From assembly GCA_043228905.1 (NCBI GenBank), contig JBHGNT010000016.1:13144001-13208000 (forward strand): a DNA stretch of 64,000 nucleotides. The letters are read 5' to 3'. Shown in pieces: positions 1 to 38,200 of this stretch. The translations under genes were made by a program, and so were the position numbers. The notes beneath the pieces were generated by a model that was not told the origin of the DNA, did not search any database, and worked only from the letters and a program-made list of their open reading frames with translations. Source of the stretch: Azolla caroliniana (Eukaryota; Plantae; Polypodiophyta). Within the stretch, counting starts at the first letter, position 1. Every line of letters starts with the position of its first letter.

Positions 1-3000
1 GAGCAAGATGGACGACTTGAACCACAGTGGGCTAAGACATCCTTAGCGAAATTATCTGAATGAAGTTGTTGCCAAATAGTGTCAAGAAGGGTAGAATCAA
101 GTGGCGTGGCATAAATTGTTGTTACTTGTAGCTTTGATGGCCCGAGGAGAATTTGCTTTTGATTGTCAAAGGCCGGATCTCCATGTTGAAGTGCTGGATA
201 CGAACGTCGAGACAAAGCATCTGCTTTCCCTTGTTGTTTTCCGGGGTGAAAAAGGATCTTGAAATCGAAACGCGTTAGAAATTGGGCCCACCGAGCTTGG
301 CGTTTATTTAATACTCGAGCTGTTTGAAAATATGTGAGATTTTAGTGATCACTATAAATGATAATCTAATGAGGTGATCCTTCTAGAAAATGACGCCATT
401 GCTCGAATGAGTCGACCACAGCTAGTAACTCCTTATCATGCACCTCATAGTTTATCTCCGAAACATTAAATTTTCTCGAGTGAAACGCGATTGGATGTGT
501 CTGTCCGTCCTCGCCTGGTTGCGATAGGATACTCCCCAATGCAAAGTTCGATGCATTTGCCTCAATAGTAAATGGCTTTTCAGGATGAATATGTGCTAGG
601 ATGGGTGCTGATGTGAATGCCTCTTTCAGTTGCGTAAAAGCCTTGTCCGCTTCAATACTCCAAAAAAATGCTTGATTTTTCTTGGTGAGTTTAGTAAGGG
701 CCAAAAAAAAATATCCAAGAAATCCCGGAAGATGTCATTTGCCATATGTTGGAATACTGCAGGTGCATTTGTGAGCCCGAAAGGCATGACTATATACTCG
801 AAATGACCATACCGAGTATGAAATGTTGTTTTCCACTCATCTCCCGGCCGAATTCGAACAAGATTATATGCACCCCTTAGATCAATTTTGGTACAATGCT
901 TTGCCCCACCAATGCATTCTAAGAGATTGGAGATTAAAGGTAAAGCATACCTATTCCTTATGGTGACTTTATTTAAGCCTCGATAGTCCACGACCAAATG
1001 AAGGGAGCTGTCCTTTTACTTCACAAAAAAGATAGGAGCACCAGTTGGAGACTTTGAATGTCGAATAAACCCATGTGCAAGATTTTCCTCGATGTATTCT
1101 CGAAGAACCTCAAGCTCAGTGGGTGATAAATTGTAAATCGGATCCCACGGTGGCTCTTTTCCTGGTTGGAGATCAATAGGACAGTCGTACGACCGATGCT
1201 TTGGAAGAACACTAGCTTTGACTTTGTCGAAAACATCAGCATAGTCTTGATATTTTTTGGGAATTTGGATGTCTGAATTCCCTTGAGTGACACTAGAAGG
1301 TGTCACTGATACTGCAAATAAGAAAAGGTCCTCCTTGCCTCCCACTTGGCACAATTGTTGCAATATGATGGCTGAAATTTGATGAGAAGGATATGGCGCA
1401 TCGATAGAACTATATACTTTAGGAGGATAATCCCGAGTTCGATCCTTGACAATGATATTTTCTGCTAAAGGGCACCTAATTTCTCACTTCCTCCAATCGA
1501 TTCTAGGGTTATGTAGCTCGAACCATGGCAAACCGAGAACAATTAGATGCTCAGGACTACGGATTATGTTAAATGAAACTACACATCCTAAATCACCCAA
1601 GAGTATGTGTATTGGCTCAGACTCTTCATATATCTTCCCGGAAGCTATGGGGCATCCATCAATCACTACTACGGAAACTGGACAAGGAAGTGTATGCAAG
1701 GATATTTGGTGTTTTTGGGCAAAATCTCTATCCATGAAACAAGAATTGGCTCCAGTATCTAAGAGGGCTTGGACTTGAAGTTGACAACTGGGTGTCCTAA
1801 CTTGTACTAGGGTTGAGAAGACTCTACAAACATGCTTGGAAGAAATGGAACCCACACTAGGTTGTACATATCTAGGGTTGTCCAACCAAACGGCTCCTAT
1901 TTTGGCCAGACTTATTCGTTTGACTCCTCTTCTAATTTGCTTAGGACTTCAAATTTATTGGACAAGGGTGGATTATTCATAATATTAGATTCACTAACTC
2001 CTTCTAAAATGTTAGACTCATTTTTATTGTCATAGTGAATTTGATTTACCTGATGTCTCGGCCTACGGGAGCAATGAATGGCTATATGTCTTGGACCTCC
2101 GCAATATAAGCATAGATGGTTTGCTCGACGATGTTGCTTCTCTTCGTCTGACAACGGTCCTCGTCGTTGAGTCATATCAATCTCCATGGGTGCAGGACTA
2201 TCCATTGGGACTGGACTACGTGTTTGCCTTGGAGTTGGAGCAGGGCTATACATTTGCCTTGGGGATGATTGCGCCGTTACTGATGCATAAGTTGGTGTGA
2301 ATCTTGATCTTGTTATTTGTTGTTGTTGCTCACATCGACGCTCAAAAAGGCGATTATCACACCGTATTGCTCGACTAATAGCTTCTGTAAGTGACCTTGG
2401 ATCCTCGGGGAAGGTAAGAAGTAAGTCTTTGACATCACTACGAAGGCCTCAACGGAATTGCTCCATTAGGGCTTGTTCATCCCAAGGAATATCGCTTGCG
2501 ATGAGACGGAAATTGGCAGCATATGTCGAAGCTGGTTGATCACCTTGACAAAGTGTACGAATCTTGTTGATAACTGTTCTCGCCCCATCAGTATCTCCGA
2601 AACAAGCCTTAAATTTCTTGATAAATTCCTCGAAATTATTAAGTAGAGGAGAATTGGTCTCTAGCAATGGAGCAAACCACGACAATGTTATGCTAGTCAA
2701 TAAGGTGCCCACTAGCCCGACTCGTGATGCATCTGTTGGATAACGCGCGGGATGCATTTGAATCACCAACCGTACTTGATTCAAGAAACCTCAGAAATGC
2801 ACCCTCGACCCATCAAATTTAGTTGGGAGGCAAATTTTGGGCTCCTTGATAAGTCCCTGACCTTCAACCCTTTGTTGTTGTAACACTAATTGTTGCACTC
2901 GTCGCGTGAACTCCTCTTGTTGTTGTTGCTTCTCTATAGTAACCTTTTGTAGATCCCCAAGTAGACATTGATTCTCTACTTCAAGAGATGCAAACTTGGA

Positions 3001-3150
3001 TTTAAGGTTCTCCATTTCTGCAACAAGGGTGAGATATTCTTCTGAGTTAATAGCAACCATGGTTTCAGGATGGTTACAAAGGAGGATAAGAGAGAGAGAG
3101 AGAGAGAGAGAGAATTCGAATCAAACTAAAAGATAAAAGATAGAGTGATG
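1..3150 (-). mobile_element. Degenerate Ty3/Gypsy retrotransposon (Tcn1/PEG10-like chromovirus), gag-PR-RT-RNaseH; continues off the window start
   Basis: Gag fragments 1912-3060 (PTKFDGSR; zinc knuckle CLYCGGPRHIAIHC), protease LLDTGA (1484-1885), [29 protein letters not shown] (626-997), RNase[11 protein letters not shown] (366-704); many stops and frameshifts. Confidence 0.9.
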
Positions 3151-6742: not shown

Positions 6743-6915
6743 ACATGTGGGTCATAAAGTACCCATTAACTACTCTACCTAGTACTTTAGATATTTTACA
6801 CATGTTTACATTTCTTGTACTCCGGTCCTTATGTTTTATGCCTATTTGCACACCCTCTTTCACACACATATCCACTCCTCTTTCTTCATATGACTAGGTT
6901 TCTTCACGACAACGT

Positions 6916-8917
6916 CGTATTCTACCACAAATATTGTATCTCTCGTCATAAGACAACCTTTGGTCGAGGTTATGTCATTAATTGTCCAAGATAAGGATGT
7001 CTTTACTTATTAGGCTGCTCTATGGTACCTGTTGAAGAAGTGTACCACATAGATGATTCAAACACATCAAACTATGTGACCGTACTATGGCACTACCAAT
7101 TACATCACGTAAACCATCAAACAATGATTCACATGGCCTGACAATGTATAACAATTGGTTTTACCCTTCCTCGAGAATCGAAACTATCCCTCTATTAATG
7201 GTGTATCTTTGGAAAACTCTCTAACTCTCCATGTCCTTCACATTCTATGACAACTACGAAACCCCTACAACTAGTGTACACACATATATATTTGGTCTTT
7301 TATCTACTCCATCGTTATATGGAAATGTATATTTCTTAACATTTATTGATCAATTTACTCATTTCACAATGGTCACTTTTCTAAAACAAAATCTACTGAT
7401 GAAGTCCTTGAAAAAATCAAAGCTATCAAAAATGTGTAACAAATCAACAAGATTTAACCTGTAACGCACTTTAATCAAATAAAGGTGGAAACTTCAAGTC
7501 CCAAAACTTCCAAACTTATTGCCAAAAGCATGGGATTCAATAACGGTTTACGATCCCTTATACACCTCAACACAATTCAAGCGTTGAATGGCAAAATCAG
7601 TTGTATATGGATGCAACTTGTTGCATGTGTGTCGTTGCAAACCTTCCCCGAACATATTAAGAAGAGGTTGTTTCAATTGTTTGTTATATATTCAATAGAA
7701 CATATGCACTCGTACCCTTAAACACTCGATCAAAATTAGATTATCATGGGGTTTCGTACAATAATCATTGGGTATGGCAAACCTCATGACTATAAGGGTT
7801 ATTGATTATATGACCCACAATCCAAAAGATTTATATTCAGTCGATGGGTGATATTTGATGAAGATAACCTAATATCTAATCCTTACCCACACCATGAACT
7901 TGAAAAGGTACAAGTCATAACCACCACATAATACTCATGTAACACCAAAATTGGGGCATGTTTAGTATGGTGGTTGTCTTGTAACTTTCCAAGTCCATGG
8001 TGTGGGTGAGGATGAGATATTAGGCTATCTTCATCAAGTATCACCCATTGATTGAACATAAATATTTTGTCTTTTGGGTCATACATTAAATAACCCTCAT
8101 AGCCATTATGTTTGTTTTAACCAAAGAATAAAGTGTAAAACATGTGATTATCTAACTTTGATTGGGTATCTAAGGGTACGTGTGCATATGTTGGACATCC
8201 TAATATGTTCAGGGAAGGTTTGCAATAGCGAGCATACAACGAGTGGCAATACCGGTTTCGATGTTGAGCCCTTGAATTTGTTTAGAGGGTATAAGGGATT
8301 GTAAACTTTTCTTGAATCCCATATTTTTGGCAATAGGTTTAGAAGTTTTCGATCTTAAATTTTCCAACATTATCTTGTTGAAGTGCTTTAAGAGTTAAGT
8401 CTTGTTAACTTTTTACAAGATTATGATAGGCCTTGATCACTAGATTTTCTCCTACAAAAAGTGAACATTGTGAAATGAGTAACGTTATTGATAAATTTTA
8501 AGAAATATACATTTCTAGATAGCGTTGGAGTTGATAAGGGACCACATCTATCTACGTGTACTAGTTGGAGAGGTTTAGTAGTTGATGTAGTATGTGAAAG
8601 AAATAACGAGTTAGAGAGGTTACCAAGGATACACCCTTCGCAAAGGGATAGTTTCAATTTTTAAGGAAGGGTGAACTAACTATTTTACGTTGTCGGGCCA
8701 TGTGAACCCTTGTTTGATGGTTTGCGTGATGTAGTCGGTAGTGCCATCATACGGTCATATAATTTGATGTGTCTGAATCATCTATAGGTGTGCATCGTCA
8801 ATAGGCACCACAGAGCAACCTAATAGGTAAAGGCATCCTTTTCTTGGATAATTAACGACATAACCTCGATTAGAGGATGTCTTATGACGAATGATACAAT
8901 ATTTGTAATAGAATTCG
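6916..8917. repeat. ~2-kb imperfect palindrome (two ~1-kb arms) of Copia GAG-pre-integrase/integrase sequence
   Basis: 6916 cgtattctaccacaaatattgtatc is the reverse complement of ~8895-8917. Matching continues inward to a centre near 7950. Translations 7231(+) and 8421(-) are homologous (GLLSTPSLYGNVYFLTFIDQFTHFTM vs GPLSTPTLSRNVYFLKFINNVTHFTM). Confidence 0.88.
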
Positions 8918-9239
8918 AAGTATGTATTTTATCATTTATCAGTTATTGACAAATATCAAGTTTTTTGCTATGTTGGGTATATAATAAATTTCATTAACTT
9001 CTGTAAAGAATCTAGTGTGATTCTGTGCAACGGAAAAAGTATGTGTGTGTGAATGAGAGAGAGAGAGTGTGTGTGAGTGAAAGAACACAAGTATACAGAA
9101 AACTAGAAATTTGTATTAACAAGAATGAGCAACAACAGTTACAAAGAAGAGGAGAATGTGCTTATGTCGTCATGTTCTCTCTATACTTTCTTACTACAAC
9201 TACCTCTTCAGAAAGATATGGAGACTTAATTGCCGACAA

Positions 9240-12766: not shown

Positions 12767-13009
12767 TGTGAAATGCTCTCAAGAATAGCCTCCCTTTCAT
12801 TATGTCTCAAGTTACATTTTATAGACTCTCTCTTAGCGTGGAGGGTGTTCTCCCGCTCCAATTAGCTCTACTAATTATGGGGCTTGGTGGGGGCCTAGTT
12901 TGGGTGTGGTGCATGAGGCTTGGTAGGGGCCTAATTTGGGTGTGGTCTATGTGTGGTGCATGGGGCTTGGTAGGGGCCTAATCTAGGTGTGGTCCATGTG
13001 ACCACCACA
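12767..13009 (-). repeat. 3' LTR of the 12767-17585 Gypsy
   Basis: Direct repeat of 17343-17585; adjacent to PPT (minus strand acaagggggaat). Confidence 0.95.
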
Positions 13010-13031
13010 ATTCCCCCTTGTAAAAAAAAAG

Positions 13032-16000
13032 TTACTGTGCAGTCGAAGCGCGACGAGGCGTGGACGACGGTTCCAGATGGGGGGATGACACGGGCGTGGG
13101 CGTAGGCATGAGTGTGGGCGGGGGCGGTGGTAGTTGATGGAAGGGCTTCATGCGAGACTGGTGAGCAAAGGTAGAGCGGTTGTTGGAGGCGCGGCGGAGC
13201 AGGTATGTAGTGTCGCGTATCTGCTTTTGAACTTCGAAGGGACCAATCCATCGGTGCATGAGCGATTCGCTGAGACCGCGACGACGGATGGGGAAGTAGA
13301 CGAGGACTTTGTCACCGACGTGGTATTGATGGTCGACACGGCCTATATCGTGTTGTCGTTTTTGGCGTAGTTGTGCCTGGTGTAGGTTGCTCGTGATGGC
13401 TTTGCGGAGGAGGGGCTGGAGTTGTTGTAGGTGGGACCACCAAGACACTGCGTCAGCGTGGAGTCGTGTGGTTGGTTGCGGGACTGCCACTTCTGGGGGT
13501 AAGCGCGGGTCCCTTCCGTAAAGGGCCCGAAATGGGCTAATGCGGGTAGAGGCTTGCACAGTTGTGTTGTAGGCATGCGTAACGAAGGGCAAGATTCGGT
13601 CCCAGGTTGAGTGCAGGGGATCGATGTAGGCTGAGATTTGTTGTTTTAAGGTTCGATTGAGGCGCTCCGTCAACCCATTCGTTTGCGGATGGTAGGGTGA
13701 CGTGAATAACTGTTGGATTCCTAGTTGTGTTGAAACGAGGCGTAGGAGCTCACCGTTGAACTGGGGTCCTCAATCGGACAAGATTTGGAGTGGGCAACCG
13801 TGGAGGAAGATGATTTTCTCCAATAGTTTGGAGGCGATGGTCATAGCCTTTGCATCTGGGATAGCGGCCGTCTCAGCCCAACGCGTCAAGTACTCGGTGA
13901 TGACGAGGATGAATTTGTTCCCTCCTTGTGACTCGGGAAAGGGGCCCATAATGTCCCATCCGACGATTTCAAATGGAGCTTGAACTTGTATCAGATGTAA
14001 GAGGCCTTGAGCCACTTGAGGTGATTTGATGGCCTGACATAAGTTGCATGCTTTGATGTAGGAGGCGACCTTGTGGCGTAGCCCAGGCCAATAGAATTTG
14101 CGACGAATTTTGTCGAGCACCTTATGAAGACCCAAGTGGCCGGACAACGGGTGATCATGGAAGAAACGAAGGTAAGACTGGCATAGTTGCTCAGGCACGT
14201 AGACTCGGGGTTCTTTGCCTACTTGACAAAAAAGTAGGACATTATCCTGGATCATGAATTGCTTGGTGAGGGATGATGTTGGTTCAGCTTGTAGGCGGTG
14301 GCAGATATCTTGGATTTGTTTGTCATGTTGTTGCATGTTGGCCATTTGGGACGAGGATATGGGGAAATCGATTGTGTTGGAGGTGATCTGGTTCGCCTGA
14401 AAGGATATGCGGGATAATCCATCGGCGACGATGTTTTGTGGACCATGGCGATAGCGCAGAGTGAATGTGTAATCCTGTAGCGCCAAAACCCAACGAAGTA
14501 AGCGGCCGGGTGGATGAGCCTTCTTTATGAGAGAGAGCAATGGCTGATGGTCGGTTTCGACTGATGTATTTGATCCGTGAAGGTATGGGTGGAAACGATG
14601 GAATGCCCAGACGATGGCGAGGAACTCTTTTTCAGTTGTCGAGTAATTTTGTTCAGCTTTGGTAAGTGACCGACTGATGTAGGCAATCGGGCAGAGTTGG
14701 TCGTTGTCGTCGGATTGGAGCAGGACCGCACCAAGGCCGACATTGGAGGCATCTGTCTGCAGATGGAAAGGCTTCGTGAAATCAGGGTGGGCCAGGAGGT
14801 CAGAGGCTTGGAGTGTTCTCTTGAGCTGCAGGAAGCTGGATTCGCAGGCTTCGGTCCACAGGAAGGGTGCGTCTTTTTGTAGGAGCGCGCGTAGTGGGGC
14901 TGACAGGTCGGCTAGCCGTGGGATGAAACGAAGAGAGAACGTGAGGAGGCCGAGGAGGCGTTGAAGCTGCTTGACTGTGGTGGGGCGTGGGAATTTTTGG
15001 ACTGCTTCTGTCTTTTGTGGGTCCATTTGTATTCCGTCGGAGGAGATGACGTACCCAAGGAAGCGGAGGCACGTACTACCCCATCGGCACTTCTTCCATT
15101 GCAGCTGCAATCGATAGCGTTGAACACAAGTTAGGACCTCCCGAAGGACTTGAAGGTGTTCTGCCCAAGTGCTTGTATGTACCAGAATATCATCTAGATA
15201 GACGATGACGACACGACGGGTGATGAGGTCATCGAAGATGGCATTGGCCATTCGCTGGAATGTGCTCCCCGCATCAGATAGGCCAAAGGGCATCCGTGTG
15301 AACTGAAAAATGCCTTTCCTAGTGCAGAATGCAGTTTTGTGGGCATCGTGAGGATTCATCGGGATCTGCCAATATCCCGAGGCTAGATCGAGGGAGGTGA
15401 AGTACTTTGATTTGCCAAGCTGGTCGAGGAGGTCATCGATACGAGGGAGAGGGTATCGGTCATGGGTGGTGACATGGTTCAGTTGTCGGAAGTCGACACA
15501 AAAGCGGTAAGAACCATCCCCTTTCTTTACCATGTGTGGCTCCGAGATCCACTCGCCCTTGGAAGGTGTGATAATCCCTTGTTGGAGCATAGTTTTGACG
15601 GTGTTGTCGATGCGCTCGTGGTCGAGAGGCGAGCGACGTCGGGGAGCTGCGTTGATGGGGCGGGCATTGCCTGTAGGAATCGTGTGGTGAATCGGAAAAC
15701 GGACCGAGGGAGGTTTTACAGGTGGTGTAGACAACGAGGGAAAGGTGGCGAGGAGCCGTCTGATGTCGTTGATGCGCTCCGCCAGTGATATCAGGTACTG
15801 TGTGTTGCTGATGTGGGTGGTATCCCGCGGAGTAGTGAAGAGCGCGATCGGAATGTGATTCGGGAGGATGAGCTGTTGTGCGGAGAAATCGAGACAGGCT
15901 TGACTATGGAGGAACCAATCACATCCCAAGGTGATTGGGAACAACTGGCGCGGGAGGACGTAGAAACAATGGTGGATCTGGGCGGAACTAATGGTGAGCA

Positions 16001-16316
16001 TGCACCTGACTTGCGTATGTGAGTGGTACACCCGTTGTTGGTCGCCGAAGAGGATTTTAATGGGCGGTGCGTGGCTCGTGGGAAGTTGTAATTGGGTGAC
16101 TAAATCTGCGCTGATGGAAGAGATGTTGCTGCCGGAGTCGAGGAGAACTTCTTGGGTCGTGTGCTGGAGGCGGGCGATTGTGGTACAAACGGGCGAAGTT
16201 GATGAAGTGGAGGCGTGGACGTGCAGGGGCGGCTCGATCGTGGGAGAAACGGGAGAAGTTGAGGACGTGGAGACGTGGACGTGCGGGGGCGGCTCTCCCT
16301 GCGGCACCCCGCGCAT
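13032..16316 (-). pseudogene. pol: Gypsy pol (PR-RT-RNaseH-INT with GPY/F motif), one premature stop
   Basis: 848-aa ORF with LLDSGS, YLDD, TDAS/TEKE/TDH and HHCC integrase. In-frame TGA at 13770-13772 (LSD*GPQ, probably CGA>TGA). Frame continues to 13032 (TNGLTERLNRT...WIGPFEV). No chromodomain. Confidence 0.93.
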
Positions 16317-17437
16317 TAGTTTTCCGGGAGCTCAGAGAGGGAGGCAGCGTCAGCTAATTGGACGTTCTGCTTCTGTTGGTGATTCTGCCACTTTCGGCAG
16401 TGACGCCGAATGTGGCCATAGTTGTTGCAGTAGAAACATTTGGGGCGTCCCTGGCTGTCTCGTTCGGGCAATGCACGCTTGGCACGTAATTGCGCGTTCT
16501 GGATGTCGATGTCCATGGGAGTGACGGCTGGTATAGTGTTTGTATGATCATGACTGAGATTACCTGGTGTGTGCATGTCGTGTGCGTCTACAGCTTCGAT
16601 GCGTTGGGCAGTGAGGATGGCTTCGTGTAGTGTCGTCGGGCCTTGATCGCGTACACGGCGGCGGAGGTCATGTCGTATACGTGGCCAGAAAAAAAACAAC
16701 TTCATGTCCTCCGACATGTTGGCGTCAGCCCGGCGTAGGATCTGCACAAAACGAACCGCGAACTGGGTGATGGGTTCGCGTGGTTGTTGGGTAATTGACT
16801 CAAGTTGTTGTAGGGCCGTATGGCGGGAGTCTTGATGAGCAAAATTCCGAATCATGGCTGCCCGTAACAGATCCCAGTCGTTGCGTGTCTCTTCGGGTTG
16901 TTGTACAAGCCATGTTGTCGCGATATTCTCGAGGAGTGTCTTCATCTCCATTGCCTTCCGAGGGTATGGCCACTGGTGGTAACTGGCCACCATTTCGAAA
17001 TGATCCAGCCAAGAGAGGATGTCTTCCGATGGTAGGCCGGAGAACGGTTTTGGGCGAACTCGAGAGTCCGGGAGATTTTGTTGTGGCTCGGATCGTGCTG
17101 AAAGAAAGGACAACATGGCTTGGTTAGTATGGTTAACTTGTAAAATGATGTTGGACAGAGCTTGAACCAGTTGGTCGATTGGCGATGTGGGCTGGTGTCC
17201 TTGATTGTGTTGTAGGAATTCTGGATTCATCGAGTTTCCGTTGCCGTCGTTGTTGTCGTGTTGCATCGTGGCGGGCGTTGTTGGGGTCGTGAGTTGGGGT
17301 GGCTTGGCCCGTCTTCTCCACCAAGATGTGAAATGCTCAAGATGTGAAATGCTCTCAAGAATAGCCTCCCTTTCATTATGTCTCAAGTTACATTTTATAG
17401 ACTCTCTCTTAGGGTGGAGGGTGTTCTCCCGCTCCAA
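16316..17437 (-). CDS. gag: Gypsy gag (true start probably near 17270, downstream of the PBS)
   Basis: RPKPFSG...WL retrotransposon-gag motif; CFYCNNYGHIRRHC zinc knuckle; ends in a TAATG overlap with pol. Confidence 0.88.
   Translation of the reverse strand: MERENTLHPKRESIKCNLRHNEREAILESISHLEHFTSWWRRRAKPPQLTTPTTPATMQHDNNDGNGNSMNPEFLQHNQGHQPTSPIDQLVQALSNIILQVNHTNQAMLSFLSARSEPQQNLPDSRVRPKPFSGLPSEDILSWLDHFEMVASYHQWPYPRKAMEMKTLLENIATTWLVQQPEETRNDWDLLRAAMIRNFAHQDSRHTALQQLESITQQPREPITQFAVRFVQILRRADANMSEDMKLFFFWPRIRHDLRRRVRDQGPTTLHEAILTAQRIEAVDAHDMHTPGNLSHDHTNTIPAVTPMDIDIQNAQLRAKRALPERDSQGRPKCFYCNNYGHIRRHCRKWQNHQQKQNVQLADAASLSELPEN
17308..17323 (-). promoter_or_regulatory. Primer-binding site, tRNA-Ala type
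   Basis: Minus strand TGGTGGAGAAGACGGG; the plus strand ...TCTCCACCA matches the 3' end of tRNA-Ala. Confidence 0.7.
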
Positions 17438-17585
17438 TTAGCTCTACTAATTATGGGGCTTGGTGGGGGCCTAGTTTGGGTGTGGTGCATGGGGCTTGGT
17501 AGGGGCCTAATTTGGGTGTGGTCTATGTGTGGTGCATGGGGCTTGGTAGGGGCCTAATCTAGGTGTGGTCCATGTGACCACCACA
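17343..17585 (-). repeat. 5' LTR of the 12767-17585 Gypsy
   Basis: Direct repeat of 12767-13009; followed by the ATAT TSD. Confidence 0.95.
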
Positions 17586-19174
17586 ATATGAACTAGTACA
17601 AATATGGCTGTTTATTCATGAAAATGACCCAAGTGTTTTAAATCTAGAGGAGATGATTAAGGGCACACATATGGGAAAAAAAGTTTAACTCGTGATGACT
17701 TGAATAAAAGCTCATAGAGAAAATAAGTGCTAAATTTTGCCTCAAGATGTTTAGGGTTTTGAAATAGTTAATGAGGAGAACAAAGATTGTGGTGAAGTCT
17801 TGATCCTAAAGTCTCAAAATAGTGAAACCCCAAATATATCTATTTCAATGATTAAGTAATCAAGGAAACGATCAAGGGTAATATTCATGTGTTGATGATA
17901 GGAGAAGCAAATTAAAAGGTTGTGTAGAAAATTTGTGAAACAAGATGACCAAGATAAATTGCATTTTCTTTTGGATATATGGTTTGAGTTTGCGATAATA
18001 TTTTTAAACCTCAACTCAATTCTGCTATTTGAGGGTACATAAATTTGTTGAACTTGATTTTAATAAATGATGAATTTTGTTTCAACATCTTATACTACAA
18101 GTGTGATTGACAATGATAGTGTTATACATCAAAGCAAATCTATGAAATTGGGTGATTTTATTTGTGTCGTCGTTGTGATGTAGGGTGCACATAGGATGAA
18201 ATAAGTTAAACTACAAACATCAAAAGGATGAATGTCAAAGCTAAGGTGTGGTATGAAGAACAAGTAACGTGTTGCATTAAAAAACAATAAAAAATTCTTA
18301 CTCAATTGGTAAGAGCTAGTAACATGAGTAAGAGGGGGAAAATAGAGCACGTAATTGGGATGAAAGCCTCTTTCATCCTATAAAAGGGTGAAGAGAGCTC
18401 ATTATTAGGGAGAAGAGAGAGAGAGAGCGAAGCAGAAATTTTGCCGAAATGAGAAATGAAGAAGCTAGGGTAGCAAATCAAGAGGGCGTGTAAGACTAGC
18501 ATTAACAAGAGGCAACGTGGTTTTCGATCACTAGAACATTGCACCAAAACTCGCTCGAAGACTCATGAACAAATCTTCTCCGATTTTTCTTTTCTTCGTG
18601 ATCTTCTTCTTCTTCACAACATACTTGCTATCTTAGGGTTTTATTTACATCATCTTCATGAAATTTAGGCTCTTAGTTTATGTTTCATTTTTGAAAAATT
18701 ACCATCGTTGTAATTGTTTACCCCAAAAACTTGTAATCCTTGTATTATAAAGGGAGTTTCCTTCTTAATCTACCAATTTTGGAGTTAATATTGTAAAATC
18801 CATTCGTACTCTCATGGTATTTAGGCTAATTATATGTTACAATCTTAATCTCGCACATAATTCATTGTTCGGCTCGTTGATACCTTCAACTCTAACGAGC
18901 CTTCAACTCTGAAGAGCGGTCAACTTTGAGGAGCCTTGTGACACGGCCACACCAACCGCTAACTCGGACGAAGCACGGATGACTGGTGTTGAATCCCTTG
19001 AAAGGGACCAAGGAGGTTACACGTATTTATACTCTGAGTCGAAGTACATGCATTAGAATATTCGTGAGAATATTCTAGAACCTTCTAGTTCTAGAACTTT
19101 CTAAAAACTCCTAGAACTTGAAATAGATAATCTACTAATAATATACTAAGATATATATAACATGATCATATATT

Positions 19175-19238
19175 TGGACGTGTTGGTTAGAACACAACAC
19201 TTGACTATATACAAAGAGGTCAAGAGTTCAAATCTTGT
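19175..19238 (+). pseudogene. tRNA-like A/B-box segment in the LTR (second copy at ~22173-22236)
   Basis: TGGACGTGTTGGTTAG (A-box-like) ... AGGTCAAGAGTTCAAATCTTG (B box with a T-arm-like hairpin). Confidence 0.6.
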
Positions 19239-19289
19239 CATCATGTTTGTGACATTATCCTCCCCTTTACGGCCGCCTTTTCGAAAGTG

Positions 19290-20580
19290 TAGTGTAGGGG
19301 TGAGGAGACTGGAACACCAACGTGACTGCCGCCTTTTCGAAAGTGTGGTGTAGGGGTGAGGAGACTGGAACACCAACGTGAGCGTGAGCGACTATGTGCG
19401 GTCCTCACCGGACAAAGGAACACCAAAATGAGTGTGAGTGACCATGTGTGGTCCTCATCGGAGACTGGAACGCCAACGTGAGTGAGCGACCATGTGTGGC
19501 CCACACCGGAGACACAAACACCAACATGAGTGAGAGACCATGTGCAGTCCTCACCAGGAATTGGAACACCAACGGATGTGAGTGAGGGGTGAGGAGACTG
19601 GAACACCAACGTGACTACCGCCTTTTCGAAAGTGTGGTGTAGGGGTGAGGAGACTGGAACACCAACGTGAGCGTGAGCGACTATGTGCGGTCCTCACCGG
19701 ACAAAGGAACACCAAAATGAGTGTGAGTGACCATGTGTGGTCCTCATCGGAGACTGGAACGCCAACGTGAGTGAGCGACCATGTGTGGCCCACACCGGAG
19801 ACACAAACACCAACATGAGTGAGAGACCATGTGCAGTCCTCACCAGGAATTGGAACACCAACGGATGTGAGTGAGGGGTGAGGAGACTGGAACACCAACG
19901 TGACTACCGCCTTTTCGAAAGTGTGGTGTAGGGGTGAGGAGACTGGAACACCAACGTGAGCGTGAGCGACTATGTGCGGTCCTCACCGAAGAAAGGAACA
20001 CCAAAATGAGTGTGAGTGACCATGTGTGGTCCTCATTGGAGACTGGAACGCCAACGTGAGTGAGCGACCATGTGCGGCCCACACCGGAGACATGAACACC
20101 AACATGAGTGAGCGACCATGTGCAGTCCTCACGAGGAACTGGAACACCAACGGATGTGAGTGACCATGTGCGGCCCTCACCAGAGACACGAACACCAATG
20201 GGCGTCAGCGACCATGTGTGGTCCTCACTAGAGACACGAACACCAACGGGCGTGAGCGACCATGTACGGTCCTCACCGAAGACACAAACACCAACGGACG
20301 TGAGCAACCATGTGTGGTCCTCACCAGGAACTGGAACACCAACGGATGTGAGCAACCATGTGCGGTCCTCACCGGCAACTGGAAACCAGCAGGTGTGAGA
20401 GGCCATGTACAATCCTCACCGAAGACGTGAACACCAATGGGTGTGAGCGACCATGTGCGGTCTTCACCGGAGATAGGAACACCAACGGGCGTGAGCGACC
20501 CTGTGCGGTCCTCACCAGGAATTGGAACACCAACGGGCATAAGCGACCTTGTGCGGTCCTCACCAGGAACGGGAAAACTT
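19290..20580. repeat. 48-bp tandem array with a 289-bp higher-order repeat (about 3 copies)
   Basis: Unit ~ccatgtgcggtcctcaccggagactggaacaccaacggatgtgagcga (16-aa periodicity in the ORF track); ORFs ending at 19609 and 19898 are near-identical, 289 bp apart. Confidence 0.92.
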
Positions 20581-21095
20581 GATGTCGATGAAGGCCAGGC
20601 AAAGTAGTGTTGATGATGACACCAAGAGGTGTTGAAGACAATGATTTTGAGGAAGTGTCTCTAGAAGCAATGACTGTGACTATGGCAATGATGGAAACAG
20701 AGAAATAGATGAAGAGGATAAGAAACACAAAGATCAAGATGTTGAGGATAAAAAGAACACAAAGACAAAGATATGGAGGATGATAGAATACACAATGACA
20801 AGGACGAAGATGATAAGAAACACATAGATAGAGATGAAAATGGCAGGAAACACAGGGAGAAGGATGACAACGACAATAAACGCAGAGATAGGGACGTGGA
20901 AGACGATAAGAAGCGCAAAGATAGGGATGATGATGATAAGAAACTAAACGATAGAGACAACGATGAGAATAAACTAGGAGATAGAGATGACGAGGAAGAT
21001 AGGAAACAAAGGGATGCTGATGACGGTAACTATGGAAGCAATAACGATGACAATGGTAACTCTAGAAGCAAGGGAGATGACGAAGATGGGTGATG
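20580..21095. repeat. Purine-rich low-complexity degenerate ~30-bp repeats
   Basis: Recurring gatgacga..gataagaaacacagagat units giving D/K/R-only translation. Confidence 0.75.
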
Positions 21096-21174
21096 CTTCT
21101 AGTTGGAAGGGATTCAAATTGTCACGAACACACAAATTGCTAATTGGATGAAGCACGGATGACAACGCTATGAG

Positions 21175-21863
21175 TAGCAATGGGCCCGGTTTCGGCTCAA
21201 ACCGAAACAAACCAAAAAACCGTGACTTAACAGTTTATAGGTTCAAAGATAAATAAACGATTTGGTTTAGTTTCAAATGTTACTAATCGGTTTCAATTTG
21301 GTGCGGTTCGGTTTTGAATTTATCGGTTTATCGGCTTATCGGTTTCTATTTATGTGGTTCGGTTTAAAGGTTTAAAGGTTTAGAGGTTTAGAGGTTAAAA
21401 AATACTCAAAAATATTCTCTATAGGCTCTAACTTTCAACTTTTAATTTTAAACTCTTGTTTTAACTTATTAAATATTATATGTATTATATGTAGAGTCTC
21501 CTTTTCATTTATGATGATCAAATTTATGATTAGTATGATGACCAAATTTATGATAAGTATGATGACAAATTTTATGATGAGTATCATGATTTTCTCACAC
21601 AAATTTATAATAAGTATGATGATTAATATCAATAAAAAATGGTTTGGTTTGGTTTGGTTTTGATTTATGATGAACCGGTTTGGTTTGGTTTGGTTTTAAA
21701 TTTTTCGTAAACGGTTTGGTTTCTCCTATTCTTTAAACGGGTTGGTTTAACGGTTTGGTTTAAATGGCTTCATAAATTTTAAAATAGTTTGGTTCGGTTT
21801 TTATTATTAATAAATGGTTTGGTTTGGTTTCAAGGCCAAGAAATCGAACCGGGCCCATTGCTA
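21175..21863. mobile_element. hAT-family MITE inserted in the 5' LTR
   Basis: 17-bp TIRs TAGCAATGGGCCCGGTT / AACCGGGCCCATTGCTA; 8-bp TSD gctatgag/gctacgag; subterminal AAACCG/CGGTTT repeats. Confidence 0.93.
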
Positions 21864-22429
21864 GCTACGAGGAACTTAAAGAAGCTAGGAATGACATTAG
21901 AGAATGAAGACAAAGATGAAGAACGAGACAAGATGGAATTGAACAAGAATACTAGATTGATGTGTCAATGTCTGGTGTTGAATCCCTTGAAAGGAACCAA
22001 GGAGGTTACAAGTATTTATACTGTGAGTTAAAGCACATACATTAGAATATTCGAGAGAATATTTTAGAACCCTCTAGAACCTTCTAGTTCTAGAACTTTC
22101 TAAAAACTCCTAGAACTTGAAATAGATAATCTACTAATAATATACTAAGATATATATAACATGACCATATATTTGGATGTGTTGGTTAGAACACAACACT
22201 TGACTATGTACAAAAGGTTAAGAGTTCAAATCTTGTCATCATGTTTGTGACACCTTGGACACGAAAGACTCTTTGACTCTAACCTACGTTTGACTTTGTC
22301 TTACCTTCGACTCAGGGATACATTTTACTCTAACTTATATTCCACTCTAGGTTACATTCGACTTTGCCCTACCGTCGACTCCATTGTGGAGCCTTTGAAT
22401 TTGAGGAACTTTCAACTCTGTGTCGTCCG

Positions 22430-33612: not shown

Positions 33613-34629
33613 CATTGAAGGAGACCTAGATGAGGCTCTAGAGATCCCTGAGGAAAATGCAACTATTGCACAAATTAAAGCATTTAAGAAATGAATCAAG
33701 GGGCAAGGAAAGTAATGCATTGGCTATCACTTAGCATCTCAGATTCGATGCTTGGACACATACAAGATGTTATGGTTCCAAAAGAATCTTGGGACAGTTT
33801 AGTAAAACTGTTTGCAGTGAACACAAATGCTAGAAAGCTTCAATTGAAGACTGAGCTAAATACCTTGGAAAAGGTAAGATGTTAGTGAATGACTATGCTC
33901 TAAAAATAAAGGGCATATGTGAATCATTTGCTTCTATTAATGTGAAGGTAGAAGATGATGATAAGGTGGAAATATGCTTAAGAGGCTTAGGACCTCAATA
34001 TAAAAGCCTCAAAACATCTATTCTCACAAGGGATAGCATCCCAAGTTTTCCAGATCAGGTTTCAATGCTTGTAGTGGAAGAAAGAAATCAGATGGATGAT
34101 GTAAACAAAGGAAACTTTGAGAGTGAGGGGCAAGCCCTCTACAATAGTGCTGGAAGAGGCCATGGAAGAGGCCATGGAAGAATTGGTGCTAGAACCAACA
34201 ACAATTATCAAGGAAGAGGACAGCAGGTTGTAAGTGGAAGAAACAACATCAAAGGTAGGGGGAGCAATCGAGGTAGAGGTAAGCAAACTTATTTGAATAA
34301 TGATGGTTGTTGGTATTGTGGAAAACCAGGCCGTACACAAGCTAAATGCTATAAAAAGCAAAATGATGAGAAAAGAGGGAAGTGACAGCAAAATAATTAT
34401 GCCTCAACTAGTGAGGACTGTGATAAAGATGGTGCATTTGTGGTGCAACATGAAACAACAACAATGGATGAATGTTCACAGAGATGCAATGAAGAGTGTA
34501 TGTGGTATGTAGATTTTGGGGCATCTAATCATATGATAGGACATGCAAACTGGTTTGAAAGTCTAAGAGAACCAGATATTCCTGGTTATGTACAGACAAG
34601 TGATTGTCATGAAGACATACATTTTGGCC

Positions 34630-34692
34630 TTACAAGGATTCGAGCCCAAAACGTCTTGGTCTATATGTTAGACCTTCAACCATTATAATAAC
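34630..34692 (-). pseudogene. tRNA-like A/B-box segment
   Basis: Minus strand TATTATAATGGTTGAAG ... GGGCTCGAATCC. Confidence 0.5.
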
Positions 34693-34750
34693 ATATATGA
34701 TGTATAGTTATAATAAATGTATTATTAGTTATTACAAGATATTTAGAGTA

Positions 34751-34783
34751 TTCTAGAACATTCTAGAATATTCCAGAACATTC
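34751..34783. promoter_or_regulatory. Heat-shock element array (7 alternating nGAAn/nTTCn units)
   Basis: TTCtaGAAcaTTCtaGAAtaTTCcaGAAcaTTC, ~100 bp upstream of the LTR TATA. Confidence 0.7.
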
Positions 34784-35193
34784 TATAGTATTCTAAAACA
34801 TTCTAGGATATTCCATGATTATATTAAATATCATAAATATCTAAAATATTCTAGAACATTCTAGAATACTCCATAAGGACCTATAAATAGGTGTCTATTC
34901 ATTCATCACAACTCATTCGGTTCAAACTGTCGAGACTTGAGAATAGGAGAGAGAAAGATAAGATGACAATAGAAGGTATAGAGAGAGAGAGAGAGAGAGA
35001 GAGAGAACATTAGAAATGGAAAGAGAGTTTATATTATAAGAGAGCAAGGATTACAAAGAGTAGGCTAAGGGCCTACAAACTGTGTCTATTCATTCATCAC
35101 AACTCATTCTATTCAACACCAGTTTGTAGCCCCTTAGCCTACTCTTTGTAATCCTTGCTCTCTTATAATATAAACTCTCTTTCAATTTCTAGT

Positions 35194-35251
<58 letters not shown>

Positions 35252-38200
35252 CCTTCTATTGTCATCTTATCTTTCTCTCTCCTATTCTCAAGTCTCGACA
35301 GTGATAATACTACTCACCAAATAGAGCATGTTGGAGATATCCCATTCTGGGAAGAAAAAGGAAAAACAAAATATACATTGAATGTTATCCATGTGCCAAA
35401 CCTTACAAAAAAACTGATTTCTGTTGGACAGATAGTGGAGCAAGGAATGCAAGTTAAGTTTAAGAAAAGTGGATGCTTTATAGAGAAACAGGGCAAGCTT
35501 ATTGCGAAAGGAAAACAACAAGGAAGGATGTTTGTGTTAGATGTGGATATGCCTAAAAAGATTACAGCCATGTTTGTAGAAGGAATGAGTGTAATCTCAA
35601 ATGTGGAAATGTGGCATAAAAGAATCGGTCACATAAGTATGCAAACCTTCAAAAATATGTTGAGGAAAAATGTTGTGGTTGGACTACCTAAGTTGAAAGA
35701 TTGTGAGATGAGCAAAATATGTGAAGAATGCCAATATGGAAAGCAAAACAGGTTACCTTTCCCTCATGAAAGACATGTAAGCAAAATTTTGTTGGATTTG
35801 GTACATACAGATGTATGGGGACCAACAAAAAATGCATCAATTAGTGGATGTAAGTTTTATGTAACATTTATTGATGATTGCTTAAGGAAAACATGGGTTT
35901 ACTTCATGAAAGAAAAAAGTGAAGTATTTGATTGTTTTTGTAAGTTTAAATGCATGGTAGAAAAGCAGGCTGGAACTAGAATAAAATGTTTAAGATCTTA
36001 CGAAGGAGGACATTACTTCTCAAATGAATTTTCTGATTTTCTATGCAATCAAGGAATAAGAAGACAGTTCACATGTAGATATACTCCACAACAAAATGGA
36101 GTTGCTGAGAGACAAAACAGAACTTTGGTGACCATAGCAAGGGCTTTAATGACAAAAAAAAGAAGCCATTGTATTACTGGGCAAAAGCTGTAAACACAGC
36201 AAATTATATTCTAAATAGATGTATAACATTTGGAGTGCATGAAGTAACTCCTGAAGAATGTTTCTATGGCGGGAAGCCTAGTTTAAAACACTTAAAAGTG
36301 TTTGGATGCCTTGCTTATGTTCATGTACCTACTGAAGTGAGAAGTAAGCTTGATCCACAAGCTGAAAAATGTATTTTTGTTGGATATTCAAAGGAGCAAA
36401 AAGGGTATAGATGTTATAACCCTTTGACAAAAAAGATTGTAGTAAGTCAGGATGTAATATTTGATGAGTTGGGCAGTTGGTACAGCCCAAAATAAAATGT
36501 AGAAACTTATGAAGACAATGAAAATGAAGACAGGGATAAATCTGAAAATGTAAGAGATACCCACAAAGATGGAAAACAATGTTGGACATCAAAGTTCAAC
36601 ATCAATAGAATGTATAGGACCATCAAAAAACTCTAGTAGTAAATTTGATTCAAATGCATGGAGTGGAAAACATGCAAGACATAAAAAATATGATGATAAA
36701 AAGGGAAAACAGAAAATGCCAGAATATGAAATGCTTGATGATGGGTCTAGAAACATGGAAGATGTAGATTCAGATACATCATTGAATAATGATCTTGGTA
36801 TAGGAGCCTTGAAAATCCCTAGTATGGAAAAGGCAATGAAAGATGCAAATCATAAACTGAGAAGATCAGATAGAGAGAAAAAAACAGTTAAAAGATTTGG
36901 TTATGATACATACATGGCTATGCATTATGCATATATGTCTAAAGTGGTACAAATCCCTGATCCAAATAATTTTGATGAAGCAAAATCTGATAAGAAATGG
37001 GTGAATGCAATGCAAGAAGAAATAGATGAATTGGTTGAAAACAGAACATGGGATTTGGTAAAGTTACCGAAAGGAAAAAATGTTGTAGGTTGCAAATGGG
37101 TCTACAAGACAACATAAAGCAAGACTTGTGGCAAAGGGATATACCCAAATGCATGGAATTGATTATGATGAAACATTTGCACCGGTTGCAAAGATGGCAA
37201 CATTGAGAACACTACTTGTTGTGAGTGCAGCCAAAAGATGGGTTCTACACCATATGGATGTAGAAAATACTTTTTTACATGGTAACTTGGAAGAGGAAGT
37301 ATACATGTGTCAACCACCAGGTTTTGAAGATAAGAGGCATCCAGAATATGTATGCAGACTGAAAAAGGCTCTCTATGGATTGAAACAAGCACCAAGGGCA
37401 TGGCATAAAGAACTTTCAGAATCTCTGAAAAATTTTGCTTTCAAAATGTCAAAGGTTGATCCATCATTGTATGTAAAAAGGATAAATGATTGCATTGTTG
37501 TTATTTTGATTTATGTTGATGATTTAATCATTGGAGGTGATTCCATGGATGAAATTAGCAAGCTGAAAAAAAATCTTGAAATGCAATTTCGTATGAAGGA
37601 TTTGGGAGAGCTGAGATACTTACTTGGCATTGAGATGATCAAATTTGAAAGTGGTATATATATGTTGCAAAAATAGTATGCAACAACTATGTGGAAGAAG
37701 TATGGTATGCTTGGATGCAAACCTATTGGTGTACCACTAGATAAGAACTGCAAATTGAGGGCTGATTTGGGAGCCAAAATAGAATATGTAAACATGCATA
37801 GGTCTATGGTGGGCAGCCTCATATATTTGACTATAACTAGGCCTGATTTGAGTTATGTAGTTCGATTAGTCAGCCAGTTTATGCAACAACCAACAAAGTC
37901 ACACTTGGACTGCATTAGAAGAATCTTGAGGTATGTAAAAGCTACTTAGAACTACGGACTGTTTTACAGGACTGGTCTGGACATAAAGTTGGAAGGATAT
38001 ACAAATGTTGATTGGGCTAGAAGCCAAACTGACAGAAGATCCACAAGTGGATATATGTTTACATTGGGAAGTGCAGCTATTTCATGGAGTAGCAAGAAAC
38101 AAGCTATAATTGTTGCATTATCAAATACTGAAGCTGAATATAGAGGAGCTGCAATAGCTACCTATGAAGAGGTATGGATCAAAAGACTGCTTGCTAATTT

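Follow-up and report, generated by a model that had tools for sequence, protein, structure and literature searches.

An inverted LTR joined at a predicted self-primer in Azolla caroliniana DNA

How does an LTR come to carry an inverted copy of its own 3′ end, and why does the joint fall at a predicted self-primer? A preliminary description of a 64,000-nt stretch of Azolla caroliniana DNA (the window, to which all positions refer) had noticed such an LTR and read it as self-primed strong-stop DNA that was retained through a template switch. We followed up this locus by comparing it with related elements, by folding its predicted RNA and by weighing the routes that could have produced its two junctions.

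The solo LTR and its inverted arms

A 696-bp LTR occupies 34605–35300 on the forward strand, starts with TGTCA, ends with CGACA and sits within decayed copia gag/pol. As claimed in the preliminary description, it runs to CGACA and is followed by the TSD GTGAT, which is also found ahead of its other end. In all four DNA runs contigs of the host copia family pass from 34604 directly into the sequence after the right GTGAT (11, 12, 15 and 4 contigs), and these empty sites confirm the TSD. Because the TSD flanks both ends, the LTR was inserted by integrase; it combines TG...CA ends, a TSD within the 4–6 bp range (here 5) and the lack of an internal domain, as an integrase-inserted solo LTR does. 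The internal domain may have been lost through LTR–LTR recombination or may have been absent from the start. No second copy of the LTR was found within the 64-kb window, and the comparison of the locus with viral contigs gave 0 matches. Purine-rich loose ends ahead of 34605 in X1 and X4 fit the PPT of 3′ LTR copies, at an agreement of only 0.44–0.45. The features of the locus are as follows, read from the letters where no other evidence is given:

33855–37673 (+): decayed Ty1/copia host element with gag and pol fragments (Pfam Retrotran_gag_2, Pol_BBD, gag_pre-integrs, rve, RVT_2)
34600–34604 (+): left TSD, GTGAT (sequence and empty-site contigs)
34605–34914 (+): U3, the promoter part of the LTR (84% identity over query 1–321 to the intact LTRs of L043 and L061)
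34751–34785 and 34849–34868 (+): two putative HSE-like nGAAn/nTTCn arrays (7 overlapping perfect three-unit matches)
34872–34894 (+): U3 stretch forming an imperfect repeat with antisense R +11 to +31, where the strong-stop 3′ end is predicted to have landed (15/20 identical)
34882–34889 (+): TATA box, 33 nt ahead of 34915
34915–34925 (+): predicted self-primer, +1 to +11, ATTCGGTTCAA (exact complement of the family PBS)
34926–34927 (−): junction 1, antisense of the GT spacer between 5′ LTR and PBS of full-length members (also in L017 and X1 record 8)
34928–35085 (−): arm 1, antisense U5-R (strong-stop sequence), beginning with the LTR end and reaching +15 exactly, or +11/+12 if one G is taken as missing
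35082–35105 (+): junction 2 and repeated U3 tail (−24 to −1), the hairpin loop
35106–35116 (+): second primer copy, with TA for GG at 35110–35111 (GG in L065 and 8 more family loci)
35120–35300 (+): arm 2, R-U5 in sense orientation up to the LTR end, including (CT)26
35301–35305 (+): right TSD, GTGAT

The inverted arms extend over 34926–35082 and 35120–35302. The inverted copy of the LTR 3′ end is present as first described: 34928–35082 (155 nt) is the reverse complement of 35120–35300. If the (CT)n tract is set aside, 3 of 129 positions are mismatched; the tract itself counts 13 units in the first arm and 26 in the second. Both arms carry derived bases in common relative to L065, the closest relative. 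A direct repeat had been placed at about 34892–34918; the repeat exists, and its extent is longer, with 34891–34925 and 35082–35116 identical at 33 of 35 positions. Folding of the RNA, proposed earlier as a check, gave −271.4 kcal/mol for 34891–35300 (z −29.4), and 0 of 100 shuffled sequences folded equally well.

The element family and its self-priming geometry

When 34540–34978 was matched against four DNA runs, 691–1018 contigs per run were obtained (read depth was not taken as copy number), and the LTR family is a common repeat under several organism labels in these runs. Normal copies diverge from the window at 34925 and continue like arm 2 (14, 18 and 17 contigs in X1, X4 and X9). A further 39 contigs (8, 15, 8 and 8 in the four runs) match from 34915 rightward and then enter an unrelated leader; by their letters these are 5′ LTRs followed by spacer, 11-nt site and leader. 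A pattern scan of metagenome contigs returned 75 loci, 25 of which were kept; all belong to one accession series and give 23 distinct contexts, which are not independent samples, and the invariance of the PBS among them is built into the search pattern. Matches to gag or pol were found in 19 of the 25 family loci versus 0 of the 50 others, and these 50, which also have 0 primers with one mismatch or less, were set aside as chance matches.

Family loci read LTR-CA, a GT spacer, TTGAACCGAAT as PBS and then gag-pol. L065, 91% identical to our LTR over 219 nt of its 3′ part, reads LTR-CA, GT, the same PBS, leader and gag, which is the sequence predicted in the preliminary description to follow the 5′ LTR of full-length members. 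L059 and L027 contain gag and PR-RT-RH-IN after the same spacer and PBS, with overlapping gag and pol ORFs, and the LTR is tied to them via the LTR end, the PBS and the gag start of L065 (78% over 27 aa). L059 itself is broken ahead of the chromodomain position; P0004, P0005, P0008 and P0010, which are 89–95% identical to L059 RT-RH, carry a C-terminal chromodomain (PF00385), in P0004 (95%) with the aromatic cage residues. By these sequence features the family is a Ty3/gypsy chromovirus. Among the best 120 protein matches, the named ones include a Mucoromycota fungus (65%), amphibians and fish (50–65%) and one angiosperm (45%); that these are more fungal, vertebrate and algal than angiosperm would be in line with the Tf1/sushi group, in which the accessible text of PMC6317226 places plant Tcn1.

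In Tf1 the RNA's first 11 bases pair with the PBS and a cut is made between bases 11 and 12, as described in the available part of PMC7175516, and this pairing and cut lead us to place +1 of the family at 34915. The RNA likely starts there and not at 34891; the R start assumed earlier at 34891 therefore does not hold, and most of the direct repeat becomes U3 tail. That the primer is the RNA 5′ end, cut after base 11, is predicted from the TATA spacing and the position of junction 2. Upstream 11-mers complementary to the PBS with no more than one mismatch were found in 14 of the 25 family loci (9 of them exact) versus 0 of the 50 others; three family loci have two mismatches and eight lack a good match, with less than 120 nt upstream in three of these. 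Where a TATA box is present, the 11-mer lies 31–34 nt after it, and the intervening sequence varies between subfamilies. The TGG that starts a site for a tRNA 3′ end is absent from the PBS of L065 and the other family loci: in place of an ordinary tRNA PBS, which the preliminary description had named as contrary evidence, we found a site complementary to an 11-mer of the LTR. The primer:PBS pairing probability was 0.88–0.94 in all nine perfect-primer loci folded (without shuffled control). The self-priming RNA of Tf1 is reported to adopt a three-duplex ‘pretzel’ structure in the accessible text of 10.1101/2022.12.06.519325; in our folds a central duplex and a helix just before the PBS appeared in 9/9, and a helix after the PBS in 1/9 (no control). 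The stretch 34915–35085 equals primer, spacer complement and minus strong-stop sequence letter for letter, one G short. We infer that the family has a Tf1-type self-priming geometry.

The family shares several features with plant Tcn1 chromoviruses, of which 83% are predicted to self-prime and which have a 5-bp TSD, separate gag and pol ORFs and a chromodomain (Neumann et al. 2019, PMC6317226, text available): predicted self-priming, a TSD of 5 bp, gag and pol ORFs that overlap (L059, L027) and the chromodomain of P0004 with its aromatic cage are found here. In contrast, Tcn1 elements are reported from mosses and club-mosses in the text available, and the likeness here is one of features, not of a tree. 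Self-priming of plant Tcn1 and TAR elements is predicted there from complementarity only (PMC6317226), and SM-Tcn1 is described without an evident priming site in the accessible part of PMC2864245. The family PBS string was absent from the 17,418 characters of PMC6317226 supplement text searched.

Several other elements share the window. The element at 18939–22252 (−) is a second one of self-priming type, with the spacer AT, HSE-like LTRs and a tandem-repeat internal region. The self-priming geometry ascribed to it in the preliminary description is borne out, in that its LTR ends at 21120 and, after the AT, the site 21107–21117 complements an 11-mer of both LTRs; this primer 11-mer is a different one, and each of its 4 differences has a compensating change in the PBS. 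Interruptions of the element's 5′ LTR include an insert of ~690 bp with terminal inverted repeats at 21175 and 21849–21863. A decayed element of the same clade lies at 1–3140 (−) (gag 57%, pol 66–68% to L059), with a PBS-like GT and 11-mer near 3115–3127, no LTR upstream and adjoining copia RT sequence. At 6912–8921 we noted an old 2-kb inverted duplication, apparently of a copia integrase fragment, with arms ~75% identical. A young Ty3/gypsy element at 12767–17587 (−) has LTRs 99% identical and long ORFs for gag and pol; ahead of its leader the final ~16 nt of the 5′ LTR occur as a tandem repeat, and we saw no clear PBS in it.

Junctions at the predicted primer and cut site

Junction 1 consists of U3, the 11-mer, AC and anti-U5, so that the joint falls exactly at the 11-base predicted primer. 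It recurs base-exactly at other sites, as the search for further copies proposed in the preliminary description brought out. L017 (1 of the 25 family loci) has a U3 81% identical to ours, the same 11-mer, AC and TGTCG; after junction 1 it continues with 13 nt of anti-U5 and then sense gag codons 288–336, and on this sequence it is a separate outcome from the LTR at 34605–35300. X1 record 8 crosses the same junction (34850–34961, 10 other letters, 76 and 36 letters flanking, depth 91.7), as does X9 record 32 with 27 letters on the short side (threshold 31 letters). Judged by their letters, all three are other copies and not our locus. No contig matching the 34605–35300 locus exactly and none bridging junction 2 was found among the matches listed (32 of 3418 and of 369). 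A resemblance to a tRNA T-loop was weighed as well, and the family spacer and PBS were preferred to it.

Further observations concern copies of the family. The L017 copy of junction 1 adjoins antisense gag/pol fragments of its own family, and its right end lies beyond the contig. One X1 contig switches strand between U3 and U5 at the joint 34904/34961, possibly as a deletion variant of a normal LTR or another rearrangement. The family LTR of L024 (~874–1130, LTR-sense) has a tandem duplication in R whose second copy sets in at +2 of the predicted primer, which is another junction at the predicted RNA 5′ end.

Junction 2 is where the antisense arm stops, either exactly at +15 or at +11/+12 minus one G, and the sequence resumes at U3 −24; the distance between the joint and the predicted +11/+12 cut is 0–3 nt. 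When the final 20 nt of the predicted strong-stop are set against U3 −41 to −22, 15 of 20 positions match. We compared this site with candidate landing sites drawn from this U3 and the internal regions of two relatives, 92 in all, each with the required match to the 3′ trinucleotide. The junction 2 site ranked first of the 92 by identity for lengths of 12–24 nt (the runner-up reaching 11/20), and its DNA duplex energy also put it first at lengths of 20 and 24 nt; at 12 and 16 nt it fell outside the top five. The homology lies behind the strong-stop 3′ end and hence in the orientation that priming needs. The first primer copy has GG, as in the family and the PBS, versus TA in the second; at 35111, A>G is found in 99.6% of X1 depth, and the base at 35110 rests on metagenome loci. 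This difference would fit two sources of the primer copies (the primer and the 3′ R), or it may stem from a later tandem change.

Origin and possible consequences of the inverted LTR

The inverted LTR is quite probably an aberrant product of reverse transcription, if two routes are taken together. We lean, with modest confidence, towards the one in which minus strong-stop DNA, likely with its RNA self-primer attached, was misused as a plus-strand primer; its order of steps and the loop orientation were reasoned from sequence, not simulated. To go by the sequence and by Tf1, the first 11 nt of the RNA would pair with the PBS, be cleaved and prime a strong-stop product of the form primer-AC-antiU5-antiR that ends at +12. 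The 3′ end of this product would then anneal not to the 3′ R but to the minus-strand TATA region, by the 15/20 match, and extension through the U3 tail, R and U5 would give junction 2. The copy strand would run on through the attached primer and so receive a PBS-like 3′ end. Where U3 meets R in a normal plus strand, this end may have paired with the 11-mer and been extended by U3, creating junction 1. With both ends intact, the product would finally have been integrated, as the TSD shows for the LTR. By the title of one Tf1 study, the primer is reportedly not removed. In about 50% of Tf1 cDNA a copy of the PBS stays single-stranded at the 3′ end and is able to pair with homologous sites, according to the accessible text of PMC11042837. 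Against this route stand the expected G that is missing at junction 2, the two strong-stop molecules and one extra transfer that it requires, and the second junction of L017, which lies away from the strong-stop end. The earlier proposal that primer and minus strong-stop DNA were retained via a template switch is supported in its sequence match and in the recurrence of the junction, and it has a competitor in re-copying by a folded-back strand.

In the latter case, which is possible though rather unlikely, the growing minus strand, having reached U3 −24/−25 immediately after the first strand transfer, would have folded back onto its antiR, made a copy of R-U5-GT and the primer, and been transferred via the primer copy to the U3 of a second template, so that the strong-stop sequence would be a copy and not the molecule. 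The two routes differ only in the strand that makes junction 2. One growing strand and single-stranded templates would be enough, GG versus TA and the loop orientation would be accounted for, and 37 nt of U3 hold 6 3′-terminal matches of 5 nt, of which the first, at −25, lands at +16. L017 would be suited as well, as a minus strand in gag that jumped onto the last 13 nt of U5. However, the homology is only 4–5 nt, and the 15/20 match and the +12 coincidence are left to chance. We also regard as unlikely a genomic origin, in which a full-length element, once integrated, had the 190 nt that separate primer and PBS inverted at the 11-bp inverted repeat, and a later deletion between the now-direct 15/20 repeat and the TATA region of the 3′ LTR removed the internal domain. 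The same sequence would result, GG versus TA and the 3 arm differences would be 5′/3′ LTR divergence, and L017 could be a second inversion with a different deletion. But two rare events are required, recombination of two 310-bp U3 copies would more readily leave a normal solo LTR, 1 of 25 loci with junction 1 seems high for inversion between 11-bp repeats, and a copy with the inversion only was not seen in this small sample.

An artefact of assembly or library preparation, such as a fold-back chimera around the (CT)n tract, would explain why the DNA runs provide, among the matches listed, no contig that confirms the locus or bridges junction 2. It is nevertheless very improbable: the arms are not identical, with 3 positions and 13 CT units setting them apart, both junctions lie away from the (CT)n tract, the TSD and both copia flanks are intact, and junction 1 contains PBS-side sequence and occurs in unrelated data sets. 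Hardly credible is a replication template switch in an existing solo LTR that copied AC from the two bases with which the right TSD opens. The TSD does begin with GT and the arm match reaches 35302, but the flank homology stops after 2 nt, the AC junction also occurs at other sites (L017, X1 record 8) and GT is the family spacer. The recurrence of junction 1 at other sites argues against an artefact and against an AC taken from the TSD, which it largely refutes.

What the locus does today was considered from its promoter and its predicted transcript. HSE-like units and the TATA box were recognised by their general consensus sequences, and three-unit HSE-like matches number 7 in U3 versus 5 in the other 63 kb, 4 of the latter in the LTRs of the 18939 element. 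A predicted transcript from 34915 forms 95 pairs if it ends at 35200 and 156 if it ends at 35300; the stem of an RNA that starts at +1 would measure ~155 bp at most. All 18 Rfam matches lie under the gathering score, and the miRNA matches among them reflect hairpin shape only. The LTR is likely a dead-end fossil; our default reading would be that it is silent, with heat-induced hairpin siRNAs as a hypothetical alternative.

The nearest described system is Tf1 of Schizosaccharomyces pombe. In the accessible text of PMC7175516, PMC11042837 and PMC4600332, an 11-nt stretch at the RNA 5′ end complements a site just after the 5′ LTR, as at the predicted RNA 5′ end here; Tf1 too is a Ty3/gypsy element (with a chromodomain in close relatives in our case), and its cDNA 3′-end PBS copy is known to pair with homologous sites (PMC11042837). 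In contrast to Tf1, the host here is a plant and priming follows from complementarity of sequence; PBS-guided insertion and tandem elements are described for Tf1 in the text available, not LTRs with inverted R-U5 at the primer. Long fold-back potential is shared with reported TE-derived hairpin siRNA loci (PMC10760457), here as a predicted fold. Self-priming itself is known, and an LTR inverted and joined at its self-primer appears to be new, as no description was found among titles and the starts of abstracts in the open-access literature. ONSEN is a heat-activated LTR element, and LTRs of this type share HSE-like arrays in U3 (putative here). Sabot and Schulman reportedly described in 2007 complex LTR insertions that arose by template switching and join collinear elements. 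Those are likewise abnormal RT template-switch products inserted by integrase; the switch here differs in that it would be strand-inverting and guided by the self-primer.

Should the locus be no more than a silent fossil that arose once, it would count as a curiosity. More speculatively, and with no great expectation that it will hold, self-priming elements may have a built-in error route, in which primer/PBS pairing takes a few percent of copies through one additional transfer that inverts the strand; the fossils would mark primer and cut site to the base, and some would be heat-inducible hairpin loci with siRNAs against their own high-copy family. A base-exact recurrent junction together with a second junction at the predicted cut would be genomic evidence of a self-priming intermediate, and the junctions give exact positions for testing self-priming in plant elements. 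They suggest a route specific to self-priming by which an ordinary LTR may turn into a long hairpin behind a stress-type promoter.
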